Shown here in pieces: positions 7,976 to 17,159 of a stretch of DNA of 17,600 nt. Made by a program: the position numbers and the translations under genes. The DNA is from a virus: the UHGV virus genome UHGV-0195027; one strand, 5' to 3'. Numbering within the stretch: position 1 is the first letter of the stretch; every line of letters begins with the position of its first letter. A model generated the notes under the pieces. It was not told where the DNA came from, did no database searches, and was given only the letters and a program-made list of their open reading frames with translations.

Positions 7976-8466
7976 TTTACTGATTCCTCGTGATACAGGC
8001 TTATACCTGCCCATTAGTTATATGGCTCCCGTGCTGCTTCGTAAACGTTCAATAATCAAACAATTGACACTGATCATAAAACCAGTTGGAGGATTTGACT
8101 CTAGCTTGGATATATGATGATGCCACCCTCTTTATATTGTTGTCGGTAACTCACAGACATTGAACTCATGCTGGTGAGTGAAAGGCTACATAAACGCCCA
8201 ACATTTAAACTGCCCTCAGCAGCGTTTGCGGAGCAATATACAGGCTTCGTATTCAATCCTTGCCCTACGAGAAACCCTAGCCGTTGCCTCGTTTTCAAGT
8301 GTCAGGAAGTTCTTTGTCAGACCTCATACAGTCTTGGGCTGGGTGAGGTGCATGGGGGAAGTAGAAGCCTTAACTGTTGAGGTAAATCGAACCATAAGTG
8401 TGCAATTTTTCAAGCCCGGCGCTATTTTAGTATTGAAAACAATTAGTACGCCCCCAAGGACAACTC

Positions 8467-9159
8467 ATGATCGAATTTATCGCAGAGCATATAAACACAG
8501 TAAGTACACTTATCTCCGCTTTGGCAGCATTGCTAACAGCAGTTGCTACATTTTTCTTGTGGAGAGTAACAAGGCTATTAGCAGACGAGACAAAAAGGAT
8601 GGTTGACGCATCAGTTCAACCTCATGTCGTTGTGACTCTTGAACCAAATTCTTGGGCTGCTTTTTATTTTGATATCAATATTGCTAATACCGGAAATGCC
8701 CCAGCCTATGATATTGAAGTCGGATTTAATCCCCCACTGGTTAATGCAGAACATAGAAAAAATAAAGGTATACCATTTAGCAAGGTTAGCGTATTGAAAA
8801 ACGGCCATTCCCTCAACAGCAGTCTTTGTAAGTATGACCAGATTAAAGATCAAGTTTATTCTGTTAGTATTAGCTGGTCTAAACAGCCGGGCTCAACTGA
8901 AAGAGAGCGGAATGAGTATTCTTATGATATGGCTTCTTTCGAGGGGGTTAGCTACTTAGGTGCAAGGAGTCCAATGACACAGATAGCTGAGCAGATGAAA
9001 AAGATTAGAGAAGACTGGAGGCCGATTTCCCAGGGAAGCAAAAAAATTAAAACAGACAACTATAATTCAAGTGACAGAGCAGAGGAACAACGAGCACGTG
9101 AAGAGTGGTATCAGGCCACTGTAAAGAAATGGGATAAAGAAAGGCAAAAAGATAACTAA
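8467..9159 (+). CDS. membrane-anchored hypothetical protein (single N-terminal TM helix plus about 190-aa soluble domain)
   Basis: ATG with AAGGA 8 nt upstream. Residues about 12-33 hydrophobic (VSTLISALAALLTAVATFFLW) followed by basic RVTRLL, suggesting a cytoplasmic C-terminal domain. Charged K/E/R-rich C-terminal tail. AT-rich. Transcribed divergently from the 7465-7975 gene pair. Confidence 0.6.
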   Translation: MIEFIAEHINTVSTLISALAALLTAVATFFLWRVTRLLADETKRMVDASVQPHVVVTLEPNSWAAFYFDINIANTGNAPAYDIEVGFNPPLVNAEHRKNKGIPFSKVSVLKNGHSLNSSLCKYDQIKDQVYSVSISWSKQPGSTERERNEYSYDMASFEGVSYLGARSPMTQIAEQMKKIREDWRPISQGSKKIKTDNYNSSDRAEEQRAREEWYQATVKKWDKERQKDN

Positions 9160-9294
9160 TACAATTGACCTGCTCCCCATAAATTAGCATACCACAATCT
9201 CAGGTTCCTCTTCGCTCAAAACAGGCAGTCAGATTTGATAGCGTTTTGGCTATGTAAATTGTCAGTCGGAAAATGAGTGTGTACAAATCAGGAC

Positions 9295-9322
9295 AGGCGG
9301 GCAGATTGCCCGCCTTTTCTTT
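9295..9322 (+). terminator. intrinsic terminator downstream of the membrane-protein gene
   Basis: AGGCGGGCA-GAT-TGCCCGCCT stem-loop followed by TTTTCTTT on the plus strand. Confidence 0.55.
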
Positions 9323-9325
9323 ATC

Positions 9326-9346
9326 TGTTGTTTCATCCACTGACCA
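9326..9346 (+). promoter_or_regulatory. candidate Ogr-dependent late promoter element upstream of FI (imperfect TGT-N12-ACA dyad)
   Basis: TGT at 9329-9331 and CCA at 9344-9346 separated by 12 nt, about 75-90 bp upstream of the FI start. One mismatch to the P2 late-promoter dyad as recalled. Confidence 0.25.
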
Positions 9347-9418
9347 GCCAGGTCAAATAGCGTCTCATGTACTACCCAACGGAAAATAGTTGCACCCATT
9401 AACCACGGAGTTAAACGG

Positions 9419-10609
9419 ATGAGTGACTATCATCACGGCGTGCAGGTGCTGGAGATTAACGACGGCACCCGCGTCATTTCCACCGTATCCACGGCCATTG
9501 TCGGCTTGGTCTGCACGGCCAGCGATGCGGATGCGGAAATCTTCCCCCTCAATAAACCGGTGCTGATTACCAATGTGCAGAGCGCAATTGCAAAGGCCGG
9601 TAAAAAAGGCACGCTGGCGGCGTCGTTACAGGCCATCGCTGACCAGTCAAAACCGGTCACCGTTGTTGTGCGCGTGGAAGACGGCACCGGTGAAGACGAA
9701 GAAACGAAACTTGCGCAGACCGTTTCCAATATTATCGGCACCACCGACGAAAACGGTCAGTACACCGGACTGAAAGCCCTGATGGGGGCTGAGTCGGTTA
9801 CCGGCGTTAAACCGCGCATTCTCGGCGTACCGGGACTGGACACCAAAGAGGTGGCGGTTGCACTGGCATCGGTATGCCAGGAACTGAATGCATTCGGGTA
9901 TATCAGCGCATGGGGCTGTAAAACCATTTCCGAGGCAAAAGCCTACCGTCAGAATTTCAGTCAGCGTGAGCTGATGGTCATCTGGCCGGATTTCCTTGCA
10001 TGGGATACGGTCACCAGTACCACCGCCACCGCGTATGCCACTGCCCGTGCGCTGGGGCTGCGTGCCAAAATCGACCAGGAGCAGGGCTGGCATAAAACGC
10101 TGTCCAACGTCGGGGTAAACGGTGTTACCGGCATCAGCGCATCTGTATTCTGGGATTTGCAGAAGTCTGGCACTGATGCTGACCTGCTGAACGAGGCAGG
10201 CGTCACAACGCTGATTCGCCGTGATGGTTTCCGCTTCTGGGGTAACCGTACCTGCTCCGATGACCCACTGTTCCTCTTTGAAAGCTACACACGCACCGCG
10301 CAGGTACTGGCTGACACGATGGCTGAGGCGCACATGTGGGCTATTGATAAGCCCATCACCGCAACGCTGATTCGCGACATCGTTGATGGCATCAATGCCA
10401 AATTCCGAGAGCTGAAAACAAACGGCTATATCGTGGATGCGACCTGCTGGTTCAGCGAAGAATCCAACGATGCGGAAACCCTCAAGGCCGGAAAACTGTA
10501 TATCGACTACGACTATACACCGGTGCCTCCTCTCGAAAACCTGACCCTGCGCCAGCGTATTACCGATAAATACCTGGCAAATCTGGTCACCTCGGTTAAC
10601 AGCAATTAA
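9419..10609 (+). CDS. FI: phage tail sheath protein (P2 gpFI-like)
   Basis: 396 aa; recognised as P2-type contractile tail sheath; GGAG ribosome-binding site; first gene of the FI-FII-E-T-U-D cluster. Confidence 0.95.
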   Translation: MSDYHHGVQVLEINDGTRVISTVSTAIVGLVCTASDADAEIFPLNKPVLITNVQSAIAKAGKKGTLAASLQAIADQSKPVTVVVRVEDGTGEDEETKLAQTVSNIIGTTDENGQYTGLKALMGAESVTGVKPRILGVPGLDTKEVAVALASVCQELNAFGYISAWGCKTISEAKAYRQNFSQRELMVIWPDFLAWDTVTSTTATAYATARALGLRAKIDQEQGWHKTLSNVGVNGVTGISASVFWDLQKSGTDADLLNEAGVTTLIRRDGFRFWGNRTCSDDPLFLFESYTRTAQVLADTMAEAHMWAIDKPITATLIRDIVDGINAKFRELKTNGYIVDATCWFSEESNDAETLKAGKLYIDYDYTPVPPLENLTLRQRITDKYLANLVTSVNSN

Positions 10610-10621
10610 GGAGCCTGACCG

Positions 10622-11140
10622 ATGGCAATGCCGCGCAAACTCAAGTTAATGAACGTCTTTCTGAACGGCTACAGCTATCAGGGCGTTGCAAAGTCCGTCA
10701 CGCTGCCAAAACTGACCCGTAAGCTCGAAAACTATCGCGGTGCGGGAATGAACGGCAGCGCACCGGTAGACCTCGGCCTTGATGACGATGCGCTGTCAAT
10801 GGAGTGGTCGCTCGGGGGCTTCCCGGATTCGGTTATCTGGGAGCTTTACGCCGCAACCGGTGTGGATGCTGTGCCGATTCGTTTTGCAGGCTCTTACCAG
10901 CGTGACGATACCGGCGAAACGGTGGCCGTCGAGGTGGTCATGCGTGGACGTCAGAAAGAAATCGACACCGGCGAGGGTAAACAGGGAGAAGACACCGAGT
11001 CGAAAATCTCCGTGGTCTGCACCTATTTCCGGCTGACGATGGACGGTAAGGAGCTGGTCGAAATCGACACCATCAACATGATTGAGAAGGTGAACGGCGT
11101 CGACCGGCTGGAGCAACACCGCCGCAATATCGGCCTGTGA
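10622..11140 (+). CDS. FII: phage tail tube protein (P2 gpFII-like)
   Basis: 172 aa; begins 12 nt after the FI stop with AAGGAG ribosome-binding site; P2 FII-like sequence and position. Confidence 0.95.
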   Translation: MAMPRKLKLMNVFLNGYSYQGVAKSVTLPKLTRKLENYRGAGMNGSAPVDLGLDDDALSMEWSLGGFPDSVIWELYAATGVDAVPIRFAGSYQRDDTGETVAVEVVMRGRQKEIDTGEGKQGEDTESKISVVCTYFRLTMDGKELVEIDTINMIEKVNGVDRLEQHRRNIGL

Positions 11141-11196
11141 TTTTCATCCGGTCAGCCTGGCTGACCGGTTAACCCCGATTCATAAGTGAGAAAATC

Positions 11197-11472
11197 ATGA
11201 ACAAAGAAAATGTGATTACCCTGGACAATCCGGTCAAACGTGGTGAGCAGGTTATCGAACAGGTCACGCTGATGAAACCCAGTGCCGGGACGCTGCGCGG
11301 TGTCAGTCTGGCAGCGGTCGCAAACTCCGAAGTCGATGCACTGATTAAGGTGTTGCCGCGCATGACGGCACCGATGCTGACCGAGCAGGAAGTCGCCGCA
11401 CTGGAACTGCCTGACCTTGTGGCGCTGGCCGGTAAGGTGGTCGGTTTTTTGTCGCCGAACTCGGTGCAGTGA
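11197..11472 (+). CDS. E: tail assembly chaperone gpE (zero-frame product)
   Basis: 91 aa between tube and tape-measure genes, the canonical chaperone position; contains the slippery site near its 3' end. Confidence 0.85.
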   Translation: MNKENVITLDNPVKRGEQVIEQVTLMKPSAGTLRGVSLAAVANSEVDALIKVLPRMTAPMLTEQEVAALELPDLVALAGKVVGFLSPNSVQ

Positions 11473-11624
11473 CGTTTCCGAAAAATCTCTCGGTCGATGA
11501 CCTGATGGCGGATGTGGCAGTGATATTTCACTGGCCGCCATCAGAACTGTATCCCATGAGCCTGACCGAACTCATCACATGGCGCGAAAAGGCGCTCCGG
11601 CGAAGCGGAAACACGAATGAGTAA
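11197..11624 (+). CDS. E': gpE+E' fusion produced by programmed -1 ribosomal frameshift
   Basis: After a -1 slip at T_TTT_TTG (11445-11451) the -1 frame is open to TAA 11622-11624, giving ...FFVAELGAVTFPKNLSVDDLMADVAVIFHWPPSELYPMSLTELITWREKALRRSGNTNE*, ending 5 nt into gene T, as in P2 E/E'. Confidence 0.7.
11445..11451 (+). other. -1 frameshift slippery heptamer T_TTT_TTG
   Basis: Zero-frame codons GGT TTT TTG; heptamer fits X_XXY_YYZ. Confidence 0.7.
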
Positions 11625-14064
11625 CAATGTAAAATTACAGGTATTGCTCAGGGCTGTTGACCAGGCATCCCGTCCGTTTAAATCCATCCGCACAGCGAGC
11701 AAATCGCTGTCGGGGGATATCCGGGAAACACAAAAATCACTGCGCGAGCTGAACGGTCAGGCATCCCGTATTGAGGGATTTCGCAAGACCAGTGCACAGC
11801 TCGCCGTGACTGGTCATGCACTTGAAAAGGCACGGCAGGAGGCCGAAGCCCTTGCCACACAGTTTAAAAACACCGAACGTCCGACACGTGCTCAGGCGAA
11901 AGTGCTGGAATCCGCGAAGCGTGCGGCGGAGGACTTGCAGGCGAAATATAACCGCCTGACGGATTCCGTTAAACGCCAGCAGCGGGAACTGGCCGTTGTG
12001 GGAATTAATACCCGCAATCTTGCACATGATGAGCAGGGACTGAAAAACCGTATCAGTGAAACCACCGCACAGCTTAACCGTCAGCGTGATGCGCTGGCGC
12101 GTGTCAGTGCGCAACAGGCAAAACTTAACGCAGTAAAACAGCGTTATCAGGCCGGAAAGGAACTGGCCGGAAATATGGCCTCAGTGGGCGCTGCCGGTGT
12201 GGGGATTGCGGCGGCGGGAACGATGGCCGGAGTTAAATTGCTGATGCCCGGTTATGAGTTTGCGCAGAAAAACTCAGAATTGCAGGCCGTGCTCGGAGTG
12301 GCAAAAGACTCCGCCGAAATGACCGCACTCCGCAAGCAGGCGCGCCAGCTCGGCGACAATACCGCAGCCTCGGCAGATGATGCAGCCGGTGCACAGATAA
12401 TCATTGCGAAAGCGGGTGGAGATGCTGCGGCTATTCAGGCAGCAACGCCGGTCACACTGAATATGGCACTGGCAAACCAGCGGTCGATGGAAGAAAACGC
12501 GCAATTGTTGCTGGGGACTAAGGCATCCTTTCAACTGTCAAATGATGATGTCAGCCATGTGGGCGACGTGTTGTCGGCAACGATGAATAAGTCGGCGGCT
12601 GATTTTCAGGGACTCAGTGATGCACTGACTTACCTCGGCCCGGTTGCGAGGACGGCAGGTGTAAGTCTTGAGCAGGCAGCGGCCATGACCGGTGTGCTGC
12701 ATGACAATAACATCAGGGGGTCAATGGCGGGTACGGGTAGCAGTGCCGTTGTCACCCGATTACAGGCACCGACTGGAAAAGCATGGGATGCACTCAAAGA
12801 GCTTGGCGTTAAAACCTCGGACAAAAAGGGAAATATGCGTCCGTTGTTCACCATTCTGAAAGAGATTCAGGCCAGCTTTGATAAGCATAAGCTGGGAACG
12901 TCTCAGAAGGGGGAATACCTTAAAACCATTTTTGGTGAGGAAGCCCTGAAATCAGCGAACGTTTTACTGGCAGCGGCAGCAAGCGGAAAACTGGATACGC
13001 TGACCGCCACGCTGAAAGCCTCGGACGGTAAAACGGAAGAGCTGGTTAAAATCATGCAGGATAACCTCGGCGGTGACTTTAAGGAGTTTCAGTCCGCTTA
13101 TGAGGCGGTGGGGACTGACCTGTTTGACCAGCAGGAAGGCGCACTGCGTAAGCTCACTCAGACGGCCACAAAGTATGTGTTAAAACTCGACGGCTGGATC
13201 CAGAAAAACAAATCACTGGCGTCAACCATCGGCCTCATTGTCGGTGGCGCGCTGGCGCTTATTGGCATCATCGGTGCCATTGGTCTTGTAGCCTGGCCGG
13301 TTATCACCGGCATCAATGCCATTATCGCGGCAGCAGGCGCAATGGGGACAATCTTCACGACGGTTGGCAGTGCTGTTATGACGGCCATCGGGGCGATTAG
13401 CTGGCCGGTTGTGGCCGTGGTGGCCGCCATTGTCGCCGGGGCGTTGCTTATCCGTAAATACTGGGAGCCTGTCAGCGCATTCTTTGGCGGTGTGGTGGAA
13501 GGGCTGAAAGCGGCATTTGCGCCGGTGGGGGAACTGTTCACGCCACTGAAGCCGGTGTTTGACTGGCTGGGTGAAAAGTTACAGGCCGTGTGGCAGTGGT
13601 TTAAAAACCTGATTGCCCCGGTCAAAGCCACCCAGGACACCCTGAACCGTTGCCGTGACACGGGCGTCATGTTCGGGCAGGCACTGGCTGACGCGCTGAT
13701 GCTGCCGCTTAATGCGTTCAACAAACTGCGCAGCGGTATTGACTGGGTACTGGAAAAACTCGGTGTTATCAACAAAGAGTCAGACACACTTGACCAGACC
13801 GCCGCAAGGACTCATGCCGCCACGTATGGCACCGGTGGTTATATTCCGGCGACCAGCTCTTATGCTGGCTATCAGGCTTATCAGCCGGTCACTGCACCGG
13901 CTGGCCGCTCTTATGTGGACCAGAGTAAAAACGAATATCACATCAGCCTGACGGGCGGTACTGCGCCGGGGACACAGCTCGACCGCCAGTTACAGGATGC
14001 GCTCGAAAAATACGAGCGGGATAAACGTGCGCGCGCCCGTGCCAGCATGATGCATGACGGTTAA
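11617..14064 (+). CDS. T: tail tape measure protein (P2 gpT-like)
   Basis: 815 aa; N-terminal coiled-coil-rich region, central Gly/Ala-rich hydrophobic segment; position after E/E'. Confidence 0.9.
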   Translation: MSNNVKLQVLLRAVDQASRPFKSIRTASKSLSGDIRETQKSLRELNGQASRIEGFRKTSAQLAVTGHALEKARQEAEALATQFKNTERPTRAQAKVLESAKRAAEDLQAKYNRLTDSVKRQQRELAVVGINTRNLAHDEQGLKNRISETTAQLNRQRDALARVSAQQAKLNAVKQRYQAGKELAGNMASVGAAGVGIAAAGTMAGVKLLMPGYEFAQKNSELQAVLGVAKDSAEMTALRKQARQLGDNTAASADDAAGAQIIIAKAGGDAAAIQAATPVTLNMALANQRSMEENAQLLLGTKASFQLSNDDVSHVGDVLSATMNKSAADFQGLSDALTYLGPVARTAGVSLEQAAAMTGVLHDNNIRGSMAGTGSSAVVTRLQAPTGKAWDALKELGVKTSDKKGNMRPLFTILKEIQASFDKHKLGTSQKGEYLKTIFGEEALKSANVLLAAAASGKLDTLTATLKASDGKTEELVKIMQDNLGGDFKEFQSAYEAVGTDLFDQQEGALRKLTQTATKYVLKLDGWIQKNKSLASTIGLIVGGALALIGIIGAIGLVAWPVITGINAIIAAAGAMGTIFTTVGSAVMTAIGAISWPVVAVVAAIVAGALLIRKYWEPVSAFFGGVVEGLKAAFAPVGELFTPLKPVFDWLGEKLQAVWQWFKNLIAPVKATQDTLNRCRDTGVMFGQALADALMLPLNAFNKLRSGIDWVLEKLGVINKESDTLDQTAARTHAATYGTGGYIPATSSYAGYQAYQPVTAPAGRSYVDQSKNEYHISLTGGTAPGTQLDRQLQDALEKYERDKRARARASMMHDG

Positions 14065-14078
14065 GGAGGTGACGAAAA

Positions 14079-14558
14079 ATGATGCTCGCGTTAGGTATGT
14101 TTGTTTTTATGCGCCAGACGCTGCCACACCAGACCATGCAGCGTGAATCAGATTATCGCTGGCCGTCAAATTCCCGTATCGGTAAACGGGATGCCTTTCA
14201 GTTTCTCGGTGTGGGTGAGGAAAACATCACGCTTGCCGGTGTGCTTTATCCCGAGCTGACCGGCGGCAAGCTGACGATGACCACGCTCAGGCTGATGGCA
14301 GAGGAAGGCCGGGCGTGGCCGTTGCTGGATGGCACCGGCATGATTTACGGCATGTATGTCATCAGCAGGGTGAATGAAACAGGGAGTATTTTCTTTGCAG
14401 ACGGCACACCCCGGAAAATTGATTTTACGCTGTCGCTCACCCGCGTTGATGAATCACTGGCCGCGCTTTATGGCGATATCGGTAAACAGGCGGAATCGCT
14501 CATCGGTAAGGCTGGCAGTATGGCGACCAGATTCACGGGTATGACGGGGGCGGGATAA
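14079..14558 (+). CDS. U: tail protein gpU
   Basis: 159 aa; recognised as P2 gpU-like by sequence and position; stop overlaps the D start (TAATG). Confidence 0.9.
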   Translation: MMLALGMFVFMRQTLPHQTMQRESDYRWPSNSRIGKRDAFQFLGVGEENITLAGVLYPELTGGKLTMTTLRLMAEEGRAWPLLDGTGMIYGMYVISRVNETGSIFFADGTPRKIDFTLSLTRVDESLAALYGDIGKQAESLIGKAGSMATRFTGMTGAG

Positions 14559-15721
14559 TGCTGGATGCGCTGACATTTGATGCAGGCAGTACGCTGACGC
14601 CGGATTACATGCTGATGCTCGACAGCAGGGATATTACCGGCAATATCAGTGACCGTCTGATGAGCATGACCCTGACGGATAACCGGGGCTTTGAGGCTGA
14701 CCAGCTTGATATTGAACTGAACGATGCCGACGGGCAGGTCGGGCTGCCGGTTCGTGGCGCTGTCCTGACGGTGTATATCGGCTGGGAAGGTTTTGCCCTG
14801 GTATGCAAAGGGAAATTCACCGTTGATGAGGTTGAACACCGGGGCGCGCCGGATGTGGTCACCATCCGCGCCCGGAGTGCAGATTTTCGCGGGACGCTCA
14901 ATTCCCGCCGTGAAGGCTCCTGGCATGATACCACGCTCGGTGCGATTGTTGAGGCGATAGCCTCCCGTAACAGGCTGGAAGCCAGTGTCGCGCCGTCACT
15001 GGCAGGAATTAAAATCCCGCACATCGACCAGTCGCAGGAGTCTGATGCGAAATTCCTGACCCGTCTTGCTGAACGCAACGGCGGTGAGGTGTCGGTAAAA
15101 ATGGGAAAACTGTTGTTTCTCAAAGCGGGGCAGGGGGTGACGGCCAGCGGTAAAAAAATCCCGCAGATTACCATCACCCGCAGCGACGGCGACCGTCATC
15201 ATTTTGCGATTGCTGACCGTGGAGCCTATACCGGCGTAACGGCAAAGTGGTTACACACCAAAGACCCGAAGCCGCAAAAGCAGAAGGTAAAACTGAAACG
15301 CAAAAAGAAAGAAAAACACCTGCGCGCACTGGAGCACCCGAAAGCGAAACCGGTCAGGCAGAAGAAAGCGCCAAAAGTACCGGAAGCGCGCGAAGGTGAA
15401 TATATGGCCGGTGAGGCTGACAATGTTTTTGCCCTGACCACGGTATATGCCACGAAAGCGCAGGCCATGCGCGCCGCTCAGGCGAAGTGGGATAAACTGC
15501 AACGGGGCGTTGCGGAGTTCTCCATCAGCCTGGCTACCGGTCGGGCAGATATTTACACGGAAACACCGGTTAAAGTGTCAGGCTTTAAGCGCGTCATAGA
15601 CGAGCAGGACTGGACAATCACTAAGGTGACACATTTTCTGAATAATAGCGGCTTCACGACGTCCTTAGAGCTTGAGGTCAGGCTTTCTGATGTGGAGTAC
15701 GAAACAGAAGGTGATGAGTAA
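14558..15721 (+). CDS. D: tail/late control protein gpD
   Basis: 387 aa; P2 gpD-like throughout (MLDALTFDAGSTLTPDYMLMLDSRDITGN...), including the lysine-rich KPQKQKVKLKRKKKEKH segment. Confidence 0.9.
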   Translation: MLDALTFDAGSTLTPDYMLMLDSRDITGNISDRLMSMTLTDNRGFEADQLDIELNDADGQVGLPVRGAVLTVYIGWEGFALVCKGKFTVDEVEHRGAPDVVTIRARSADFRGTLNSRREGSWHDTTLGAIVEAIASRNRLEASVAPSLAGIKIPHIDQSQESDAKFLTRLAERNGGEVSVKMGKLLFLKAGQGVTASGKKIPQITITRSDGDRHHFAIADRGAYTGVTAKWLHTKDPKPQKQKVKLKRKKKEKHLRALEHPKAKPVRQKKAPKVPEAREGEYMAGEADNVFALTTVYATKAQAMRAAQAKWDKLQRGVAEFSISLATGRADIYTETPVKVSGFKRVIDEQDWTITKVTHFLNNSGFTTSLELEVRLSDVEYETEGDE

Positions 15722-15802
15722 TGTTTTGTTTTTATCTGTTTGTTTTATAAGGATAAATTAACTAAAATGGCACCATCAACAAAACTGGAAGAGGTGCTCG
15801 CG

Positions 15803-16021
15803 ATGTTTCATTGTCCTTTATGCCAGCATGCCGCACATGCGCGTACAAGCCGCTATATCACTGACACGACAAAAGAGCGTTATCACCAGTGCCAGAACGT
15901 GAATTGCAGCGCCACGTTCATCACTTATGAGTCGGTACAGAGATACATCGTGAAGCCGGGAGAAGTCCACGCCGTGAGGCCGCACCCGTTGCCGTCAGGG
16001 CAGCAAATTATGTGGATGTGA
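15803..16021 (+). CDS. ogr: late-gene transcriptional activator Ogr (zinc-finger)
   Basis: 72-aa product MFHCPLCQHAAHARTSRYITDTTKERYHQCQNVNCSATF... with a Cys4 zinc-binding motif, matching P2 Ogr as recalled. The listed ORF start 15740 is an upstream in-frame Met and is rejected. Confidence 0.9.
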   Translation: MFHCPLCQHAAHARTSRYITDTTKERYHQCQNVNCSATFITYESVQRYIVKPGEVHAVRPHPLPSGQQIMWM

Positions 16022-16032
16022 TCACAAAAATA

Positions 16033-16057
16033 GCCCCTCAGTTGAGGGGCTTATTTA
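16033..16057 (+). terminator. intrinsic terminator after ogr; prophage right-end region
   Basis: GCCCCTCA-GT-TGAGGGGC stem-loop followed by TTATTTA, 12 nt after the ogr stop. Confidence 0.6.
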
Positions 16058-16120
16058 TGGTCGATGTGGACGCTATGTGGACAGTGGTTGATATAAATCC
16101 ATTTATATCATCAGGTTAGG

Positions 16121-16175: not shown

Positions 16176-16256
16176 ATCCTCAATTTGCCTGCTGCTTAAT
16201 GCATTGCAGATGATTTGCTTCCGTTATACTAGCGTCAGTTGATAGCGGGAGTATTT

Positions 16257-17159
16257 ATGAATCAATCTTATGGACGGCTGGTCAGTCGGGCGGCGATTGC
16301 TGCGACGGCGATGGCTTCGTTGCTATTGCTGATTAAAATTTTTGCATGGTGGTATACCGGGTCGGTGAGTATTCTCGCCGCGCTGGTGGATTCGCTGGTG
16401 GATATCGGCGCGTCGTTGACGAATTTACTGGTGGTGCGATATTCCCTGCAACCTGCCGACGATAATCACTCGTTTGGTCACGGTAAAGCAGAGTCCCTCG
16501 CGGCGCTGGCGCAAAGTATGTTTATCTCCGGTTCGGCACTATTCCTGTTTTTGACGGGTATTCAACATCTGATATCTCCAACACCGATGACAGATCCAGG
16601 CGTCGGGGTTATCGTGACAATTGTGGCGCTAATTTGTACGATTATCCTTGTCTCGTTTCAGCGTTGGGTGGTGCGCCGGACGCAAAGCCAGGCGGTGCGG
16701 GCTGATATGCTACATTACCAGTCTGATGTTATGATGAACGGCGCAATTCTGCTGGCGCTGGGGTTGTCCTGGTACGGCTGGCATCGCGCCGATGCTCTGT
16801 TTGCATTGGGAATCGGCATCTATATTTTATATAGCGCGTTACGCATGGGATATGAGGCGGTACAGTCATTACTGGATCGCGCATTGCCTGATGAGGAACG
16901 GCAAGAAATTATTGATATCGTGACTTCCTGGCCGGGTGTTAGCGGCGCTCACGATCTTCGCACGCGGCAGTCAGGGCCGACCCGCTTTATTCAGATTCAT
17001 TTGGAAATGGAAGACTCTCTGCCTTTGGTTCAGGCACATATGGTGGCGGATCAGGTAGAGCAGGCTATTTTACGGCGTTTTCCGGGATCGGATGTAATTA
17101 TCCATCAGGACCCCTGTTCCGTCGTACCCAGGGAGGGTAAACGGTCTATGCTTTCATAA
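16257..17159 (+). CDS. fieF: ferrous-iron/zinc efflux pump FieF (YiiP), cation diffusion facilitator family
   Basis: 300-aa product starting [38 protein letters not shown]..., recognised as E. coli FieF. The listed ORF start 16239 adds six residues and is rejected. Confidence 0.95.

Follow-up and report, generated by a model that had tools for sequence, protein, structure and literature searches.

Classical single-gene superinfection-exclusion proteins of the inner membrane, such as T4 Imm, P22 SieA and HK97 gp15, are small, encoded by phages or prophages, non-enzymatic and narrowly distributed. SNIPE (PD-lambda-1) is a single-gene system that is constitutively membrane-anchored and acts where phage DNA enters, and its N-out/C-in topology was shown by PhoA-LacZ-alpha fusions (PMC13190303). 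The N-terminal and transmembrane (TM) region of SNIPE is its least conserved part, an exchangeable anchor or adapter (PMC13190303). In P2-like phages, the Z/fun slot is a second defence-enriched locus and holds fun together with three newly validated systems (Vassallo et al. 2022, PMC9519451). We analyzed a gene at positions 8467-9159 (+ strand) of a 17,600-nucleotide (nt) stretch (the window) from virus genome UHGV-0195027. The gene encodes a protein of 230 amino acids (aa) and occupies the polymorphic P2 Z/fun cargo slot between genes G and FI. Comparison of its relatives revealed a stand-alone, horizontally mobile cargo gene of integrative elements, consisting of a leader and an open reading frame (ORF). 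Its product is predicted to be an inner-membrane protein with one unusually conserved helix face, and we tentatively read it as an anti-phage factor.

Like P2 fun and the three PD systems, which reside in the same slot, the 230-aa gene is independently transcribed, low-GC cargo between two late tail operons. It shows no sequence relationship to fun in a tblastn search of 50,697 phage records, P2 included, in which the only matches were R18C, P2-EC53 and two distant ORFs of Bacillus phages, and none of the PADLOC PD-T4, PD-lambda and PD-T7 models matches the protein. The resemblance to SNIPE is one of layout, namely an N-terminus in the periplasm, a single TM helix and a cytoplasmic remainder, for the 230-aa protein by prediction only. 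However, SNIPE needs DUF4041 and a GIY-YIG nuclease, neither of which was found in the 230-aa protein by Pfam (E ≤ 0.1), by the PADLOC PD-Lambda-1 model or in the predicted fold. Conservation of the anchor, poorest in SNIPE, is highest in the 230-aa family. With the classical exclusion proteins the 230-aa protein shares small size, a membrane anchor, a single gene and the lack of an enzyme, but it has no Pfam or PHROG link to them, its family spans three proteobacterial classes, and its functional domain is predicted to be cytoplasmic. Among curated superinfection-exclusion families (SieB- and Imm-type), no model was matched in the Pfam or PHROGs scans. The original prediction had named identity with a known phage structural, lysis or exclusion protein as the outcome that would speak against it, and we found no such identity.

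The ORF is already present in GenBank and is therefore not new as an ORF. It was deposited as ORF1 of the P2-EC53 proviral Z region (AJ512682/CAD54906.1), which shares 99.5% nt identity with the window across 2121 nt and 98.7% aa identity, and which its depositors labelled "putative lysogenic conversion protein". The complete phage R18C is 99.9% identical to segment 7300-9420, and its copy is the hypothetical protein QDP43518.1; the amino acid identity of the 230-aa protein to the two copies is 98.7-99.1%. These are the same gene in the same G-FI slot with the same flanking cassette and no substantive difference, except that the window copy lies in a remnant truncated by an insertion sequence of the IS21 family. 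The PHROG 11802 profile is matched over its full length (E = 1.2e-146, residues 1-230 on positions 1-230 of 230). Thus, the protein, first described as being of unknown family, does belong to a catalogued one, but one without a function on record, and the P2-EC53 and R18C records describe no function, topology, fold or family.

Profile searches returned little else. None of the 5027 defence protein models in PADLOC-DB 2.0.0 was matched by the 230-aa protein at E ≤ 1, and 128 relatives gave only seven scattered single matches (E 0.008-0.024), nothing consistent. The PHROGs matches were to function-unknown families only. Pfam returned only a chance Phe_tRNA-synt_N match for the protein (E ≤ 0.1) and only sub-threshold CARDB/DUF7507 matches for the 128 relatives. 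Matches to Phe_tRNA-synt_N, ESAT6_2 and SecE in the Pfam, NCBIfam, PADLOC and PHROGs scans were dropped as chance level. A family-profile sequence search of the Protein Data Bank (PDB) found no solved relative. The TFAM HMG-box matches seen there (E 0.09-0.4, residues 160-209) were rejected as compositional, because all came from one protein and all were above threshold.

The 230-aa ORF is a genuine gene under purifying selection. This is indicated by a dN/dS of 0.126 (pS 0.445, pN 0.080) relative to the 84%-identical copy in E. coli E2348/69, by 234 homologues in a word-indexed search, and by 616 clusters (50% identity) at E ≤ 1e-3, 81 of them at E ≤ 1e-30, in an exhaustive HMMER search of 1.84 billion cluster representatives. 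The coding sequence, of the RefSeq WP_001572865.1 type, runs from an ATG to a stop codon at 9157-9159. As proposed earlier, it has its own ribosome-binding site and terminator. The Shine-Dalgarno sequence AAGGA (8456-8460, + strand) lies 6 nt before the ATG and is kept in a five-way alignment of the leader, and an intrinsic-terminator-like hairpin with a T-run (9295-9315, + strand), 136 nt past the stop, closes the cargo slot ahead of FI. The gene is also divergent from its neighbours, as the two ORFs upstream (7465-7743 and 7796-8014) are on the minus strand.

The left border of the slot is marked by a terminator-like site after G (7441-7462), and the GC content is 40-42% in the slot compared with 55% in FI. 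The slot is polymorphic: of the 73 P2-type phage records with a match, only 3 extend over 80% or more of the query, and the others listed match just the FI-proximal ~210 nt. The left and right inverted repeats annotated in AJ512682 align poorly, and a repeat finder shows none except the terminator hairpin.

To follow the gene beyond this slot, we compared its copies across genomes. It is carried by 105 of 5426 complete E. coli genomes, always as a single copy and always on the chromosome. A few E. coli copies of lower identity, such as those in E2348/69 and OkiPb01685, are found outside the P2 slot, next to a small serine recombinase at the tRNA-Leu-proximal end of a leuX island that carries an integrase. 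The P2-slot and leuX-island copies share only window positions 8329-9134, that is, the leader and the ORF. In other bacteria the gene is found as a singleton at the end of a Pectobacterium integrative and conjugative element (ICE), beside a Xanthomonas integrase, in a Klebsiella integrase islet, in an Erythrobacter Mob_Pre/Prim-Pol element and near a Yokenella resolvase. A scan of one genome per species gave 67 loci, all from alpha-, beta- or gammaproteobacteria and none with P2 tail genes within 10 kb. Neighbour families at 63 loci yielded no conserved partner gene; no family was present at more than 6 of the 63, and the most recurrent was a small serine recombinase. The earlier suggestion that the gene may act alone is supported by the small shared module and by these singleton contexts.

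The shared module begins with a 138-nt leader (8329-8466, + strand), which accompanies the ORF between contexts. The leader is 80-85% identical between the P2-slot and leuX-island copies and is similarly conserved in Kosakonia and Pantoea in the five-way alignment. It is constrained, because synonymous sites of the ORF differ by 44.5% between the P2-slot and E2348/69 copies, and it is non-coding, because the alignment contains a 2-nt indel. N-terminally extended gene calls of 268-275 aa (P0005, P0278) were rejected on account of this indel. A structured RNA was also rejected, as the leader had no Rfam match, a folding z-score of -0.35 and almost no covariation over five sequences. The leader does contain a small CAGYC-TTSG-GGCTG hairpin. 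It is presumably promoter/operator DNA, although a simple sigma-70 consensus scan found no site there and no promoter anywhere in 7200-9450.

Residues 12-32 (8500-8562, + strand) form the sole hydrophobic segment (Kyte-Doolittle 19-mer mean 2.05), a single predicted TM helix, of which the C-terminal half, TAVATFFLW, is highly conserved. The preceding 11 residues (8467-8499, + strand) form a short acidic tail that is predicted to be periplasmic and is the least conserved part of the protein. A basic juxtamembrane helix (residues 33-49; 8563-8613, + strand) continues the TM helix. In agreement with the original prediction, the tail contains two acidic and no basic residues, and four K/R lie within 15 residues past the helix. 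Among 164 relatives with a complete N-terminus, the 15 positions following the helix are richer in K/R than the 15 preceding it in 160 and poorer in none (mean 3.1 compared with 0.24). An N-out/C-in bitopic inner-membrane topology, with a single N-terminal TM helix as first proposed, is well supported as a prediction. Four metagenomic relatives (P0158, P0168, P0173 and P0204) have, ahead of the conserved TM helix, an additional hydrophobic or signal-like stretch at the N-terminus and then a linker of ~80 residues that is acidic and of low complexity; their juxtamembrane motif, LAxRTxxPQVVA, is shortened. Their arrangement implies a periplasmic extension, and these two-segment variants would likewise place the conserved domain in the cytoplasm.

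Conservation is concentrated in the membrane-spanning and juxtamembrane helix, for which AlphaFold2 predicts one continuous helix over residues 2-49. In an alignment of 128 diverse members, T24, A25, A27, T28 and L31 are conserved at 82-99%, and T35, L38, A39 and T42 complete the stripe. The residues conserved at 90% or more are T28, L31, T35, L38, T42, A80, P89, L110, W137, Y151, P169 and R204, while N74 and G76 are invariant. By region, residues 22-49 have the lowest entropy (1.6-1.9 bits), compared with 2.25 for the beta-sandwich described below and 3.1 for the C-terminal tail. Conservation over residues 20-49 has a periodicity of 3.57 residues (permutation p = 5e-5). Because of this low entropy and helical periodicity, the alignment indicates that one face of the predicted helix (T24, A25, A27, T28, L31, T35, L38, A39 and T42) is strongly constrained. 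We infer that this face is a specific site of helix-helix contact, be it between copies of the protein or with a conserved partner in the membrane.

The structure of the cytoplasmic part was predicted with confidence (pLDDT, predicted local distance difference test, 94) as a generic immunoglobulin (Ig)-like beta-sandwich followed by two helices. Residues 50-158 (8614-8940, + strand) form the predicted seven-stranded, CARDB-like sandwich, which contains N74 and G76 in an NTGNA motif along with A80, P89, L110, W137 and Y151. Residues 159-200 (8941-9066, + strand) comprise a conserved linker (L164, G165, P169), an amphipathic helix (169-188, hydrophobic moment 1.34) and a turn at G190. The long K/E/R-rich C-terminal helix (residues 201-230; 9067-9156, + strand) starts at the near-invariant D203-R204 and varies in sequence and length among relatives. 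The family architecture is otherwise constant at ~215-240 aa. The last 71 residues hold 16 K/R and 12 D/E. The soluble domain is thus followed by a highly charged segment, as had been noted, but in the form of two confidently predicted helices and not of a disordered tail. No catalytic motif and no specific structural relative was found for the predicted fold. Structure prediction, which had been suggested as a check, likewise revealed no known structural, lysis or exclusion relative. The matches to CARDB (PF07705; PDB 3idu) are all under the Pfam gathering scores, and CARDB domains are usually extracytoplasmic. A KirBac3.1-type match scores no higher than dozens of unrelated Ig-like domains. 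The KirBac3.1 cytoplasmic Ig-like domain (1xl4) belongs to a channel with two TM helices and a pore loop, whereas the 230-aa protein has one TM helix and no pore loop.

We consider it most likely, with a probability of roughly 0.4, that the protein is a stand-alone anti-phage factor of the superinfection-exclusion type, expressed from the prophage and acting directly on the cytoplasmic side of the inner membrane. The Thr/Leu/Ala stripe, running from the inner leaflet into the cytoplasm, would zip several copies together or dock them to a conserved inner-membrane partner. The beta-sandwich/helix module would thereby be kept at the cytoplasmic membrane surface, the site at which incoming phage genomes and ejection proteins appear. 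By binding a phage or host component at this site, it may block infection at an early step, with no enzymatic effector and no death of the cell. The published P2 defence slot, the defence genes found near relatives, the small serine recombinase as the commonest neighbour and the precedent of SNIPE make such a function credible but unproven. Small serine recombinases have been proposed as markers of defence loci (PMC13552941).

The neighbourhoods of relatives were scanned with PADLOC in three batches, covering ORFs of at least 150 aa within 5 kb at 61 loci (388 ORFs). The first batch (22 loci) included a complete Gabija system directly upstream in Cupriavidus (GajA 3.6e-202, GajB 5.1e-173), a type IIG restriction-modification enzyme directly upstream in Paenacidovorax (7.5e-185) and a TIR-NLR in an Alcaligenaceae genome (1.1e-229). 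It also contained a reverse transcriptase (UG29-like) and MzaA-like pair directly upstream in a metagenome-assembled genome (MAG), a DpdF-like helicase in Kosakonia, two NsnA, two PD-T4-2_A and three mad2 matches. The second batch (E ≤ 1e-40) added PDC-S06, the Thoeris protein ThsB, mad3, RmrT, AbiD, CapP and PDC-M34A, and the third added type I restriction-modification (R, M and S subunits), type III and type II methyltransferases and PD-lambda-4_A. In an E. coli genome set, the share of genes that lie within 10 genes of a known system is 2% overall, 17% for known defence genes and 14% for predicted ones (PMC13092281). Compared with this published 2% background, the per-protein count is suggestive of a defence-like neighbourhood, though not decisive.

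Several observations weigh against an anti-phage function. Neighbours were counted per protein and mostly not per locus (ten ORFs of the first batch were scanned singly), and without matched control loci. Some of the PADLOC matches are paralogue noise: DpdA is probably tgt beside Pseudomonas queA, and some GajB/RTasHel matches are probably UvrD-like. Cargo regions of mobile elements are in any case enriched for defence genes, irrespective of what any particular gene does. Some copies lie between core genes, as at sphingomonad ribBA/rodA and beside Pseudomonas queA. A close homologue was found by tblastn in only 3 of the 50,697 phage records. The ~45% identity between the E. coli protein and its Xanthomonas and sphingomonad relatives is more than one would normally expect of an exclusion protein keeping pace with fast-evolving phage components. 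No PADLOC PD-system model is matched by the protein, and it is not among the 21 systems obtained from the selection based on ECOR (the E. coli reference collection) with T4, lambda-vir and T7 (PMC9519451). A literature search by accession and by name found nothing tying the protein to any phenotype.

Many of the same observations would fit a protein that is not anti-phage at all. It could be a lysogenic-conversion or accessory membrane protein, with a role in envelope homeostasis, in modulating an inner-membrane machine, or in mobile-element stability or entry exclusion, and would be found in cargo slots only because these tolerate insertions. This would agree with the depositors' label, which goes no further than lysogenic conversion, with the singletons among core genes, with the rarity of the gene in sequenced phages and in plasmids (relatives were found only on two Pseudomonas megaplasmids), and with its absence from PADLOC and from the systems recovered in the ECOR functional defence screen (PMC9519451). 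Conservation over three proteobacterial classes, together with the constrained helix face, suggests a conserved host partner. On the other hand, the gene is patchily distributed (105 of 5426 complete E. coli genomes, always single copy), its place is at the edge of mobile-element cargo, often with bona fide defence systems adjacent, and the neighbour families at the 63 loci show no link to a metabolic or envelope operon. One copy is disrupted by an IS3 element, implying that the gene is dispensable. We regard a role outside defence as unlikely, albeit as the strongest competitor.

A defence function could also be exerted through abortive infection, in which the beta-sandwich would sense a phage cue and the TM/juxtamembrane bundle would leak ions or disrupt the inner membrane, stopping growth before phage release. 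The original prediction had mentioned effectors of this kind together with exclusion. As the protein has no enzymatic domain, an effector activity would have to come from the membrane segment, and this helix, which has polar Thr residues along one side, exceeds the soluble domain in conservation. High conservation across alpha-, beta- and gammaproteobacteria is easier to reconcile with a general trigger or with self-assembly than with recognition of variable phage parts, TM proteins of defence systems have been viewed as suicide effectors (PMC9122126), and the defence-island context applies as it does to exclusion. However, the Thr residues alternate with Leu/Ala in a heptad-like a/d pattern, which looks more like the packed core of a coiled coil than a water-filled pore. 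A pore built from one TM helix per subunit would require many subunits, and the Kir match, no better than those to unrelated Ig-like domains, lends no help. Abortive infection therefore seems to us improbable.

More speculative is an enzyme-free bundle of single TM helices, joined through the invariant Thr/Leu stripe and gated by a Kir-like cytoplasmic Ig-like ring, which would open or rearrange on binding a phage component; alternatively, the protein may be a passive plug on a conserved genome-entry machine. We hold either version to be a long shot. Least probable, and in effect rejected, is a three-gene system of the 230-aa protein with the 92-aa (Cas2-like/PHROG 1090) and DUF3606 genes, which share with it a 452-bp divergent intergenic region and a cassette in E. 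coli (pair in 102 of 5426 genomes, ORF in 105), but this co-occurrence is the clonal inheritance of one cassette, because nearly all copies are at least 99% identical, while the segment common to leuX-island copies is 8329-9134 only, no DUF3606 or PHROG 1090-like neighbour was seen in the non-P2 contexts examined, no neighbour family exceeds 6 of 63 loci, and a terminator-like site parts the two minus-strand genes.

The P2-type Z/fun slot is a proven source of anti-phage genes, and most of its cargo is still labelled hypothetical. The 230-aa protein represents a sizeable family that is not picked up by any curated database. The structure is predicted confidently and lacks an enzymatic domain, and the TM/juxtamembrane face is unusually well conserved. 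If the protein does protect, it would define a defence family missed by PADLOC and probably by DefenseFinder, and would be a second example, after SNIPE, of immunity organized on the cytoplasmic side of the inner membrane. It would also be a small, tractable 230-aa model for a non-enzymatic membrane protein that stops infection. A gated bundle or plug, if real, would be a defence mechanism without a relative among described systems, spread over alpha-, beta- and gammaproteobacteria. If there is no protection, this would still be a widely exchanged cargo gene of mobile elements with a helix face pointing to a conserved membrane partner.

The surrounding DNA is the tail half of a P2-type prophage (window ~6464 to 16111). 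The tail-fibre assembly protein (gene G, Caudo_TAP by Pfam; 6717-7244) precedes the slot, and the sheath protein FI (Phage_sheath by Pfam; 9419-10609) follows it, then the tube, the tape measure and D, with Ogr at 15740-16021. A chromosomal cation-efflux gene (16239-17159) lies beyond Ogr. On the other side, an IS21-family element (4140-6442), encoding IstA (rve and Mu-transposase C domains) and IstB_IS21, interrupts the P2 tail-fibre gene, of which 6464-6715 lies beside the element; the match to intact P2-type phages begins only at 6671. To the left of the element are a K88-type fimbrial subunit (34-381) and a split AraC/GyrI-like gene (3228-3959), neither related to the prophage. Because IS21 cuts the tail-fibre gene and the DNA to its left is unrelated, the prophage in the window is a remnant that retains tail genes and the cargo slot. 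An apparently complete P2-type prophage carries the same cassette in E. coli strain 2452.

The two minus-strand genes upstream form, with the 230-aa ORF, a ~2-kb cassette. The first (7465-7743) encodes a 92-aa PHROG 1090 protein with a weak full-length Cas2-like match (PADLOC Cas2_II, E = 0.019), and the second (7796-8014) a DUF3606 protein (Pfam E = 4e-18) for which the RefSeq start is an internal Met, giving 59 aa. The terminator-like site between them is at 7790-7771 (minus strand). In the contexts examined, the pair accompanies no relative of the 230-aa gene outside the clonal E. coli cassette, and the shared unit is just 8329-9134; the joint action first proposed as an option was not supported, and the pair may be an independent cargo unit.

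Individual relatives showed further features. An apparent similarity between an 88-aa ORF upstream of the Klebsiella homologue and the window ORF at 8168-8380 was not significant. In E2348/69 (NC_011601, 4847258-4862239), the homologue is at the tRNA-Leu end of an integrase-bearing element of ~14 kb that directly adjoins the hsdRMS/mcrBC region. This element encodes a small serine recombinase, a DEAD/DpdF-like helicase, HNH endonucleases and many small ORFs, and looks satellite-like or like a phage-inducible chromosomal island (PICI). OkiPb01685 has the same island with an AbiJ-NTD4 neighbour, and it is here that IS3 splits the homologue. At the Pectobacterium ICE end, an opposite-strand sigma-54-activator/AAA gene lies upstream of the homologue and an Rhs/PAAR toxin cassette downstream; at one of these loci (L066), the upstream AAA protein matches the PADLOC RtcR-CARF_AAA_HTH models (E = 1.8e-96). 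The Bacillus subtilis phages vB_BsuS-Goe12 and Goe13 (~125 kb) encode a 27%-identical ORF at 64411-64905 (E = 5e-6, residues 34-192), and these are the only relatives from outside the Proteobacteria among the searches that report the organism. A Rhodobacteraceae MAG contig (CATOSB010000015.1) carries two distant copies of the family ~14 kb apart, the sole two-copy neighbourhood seen.

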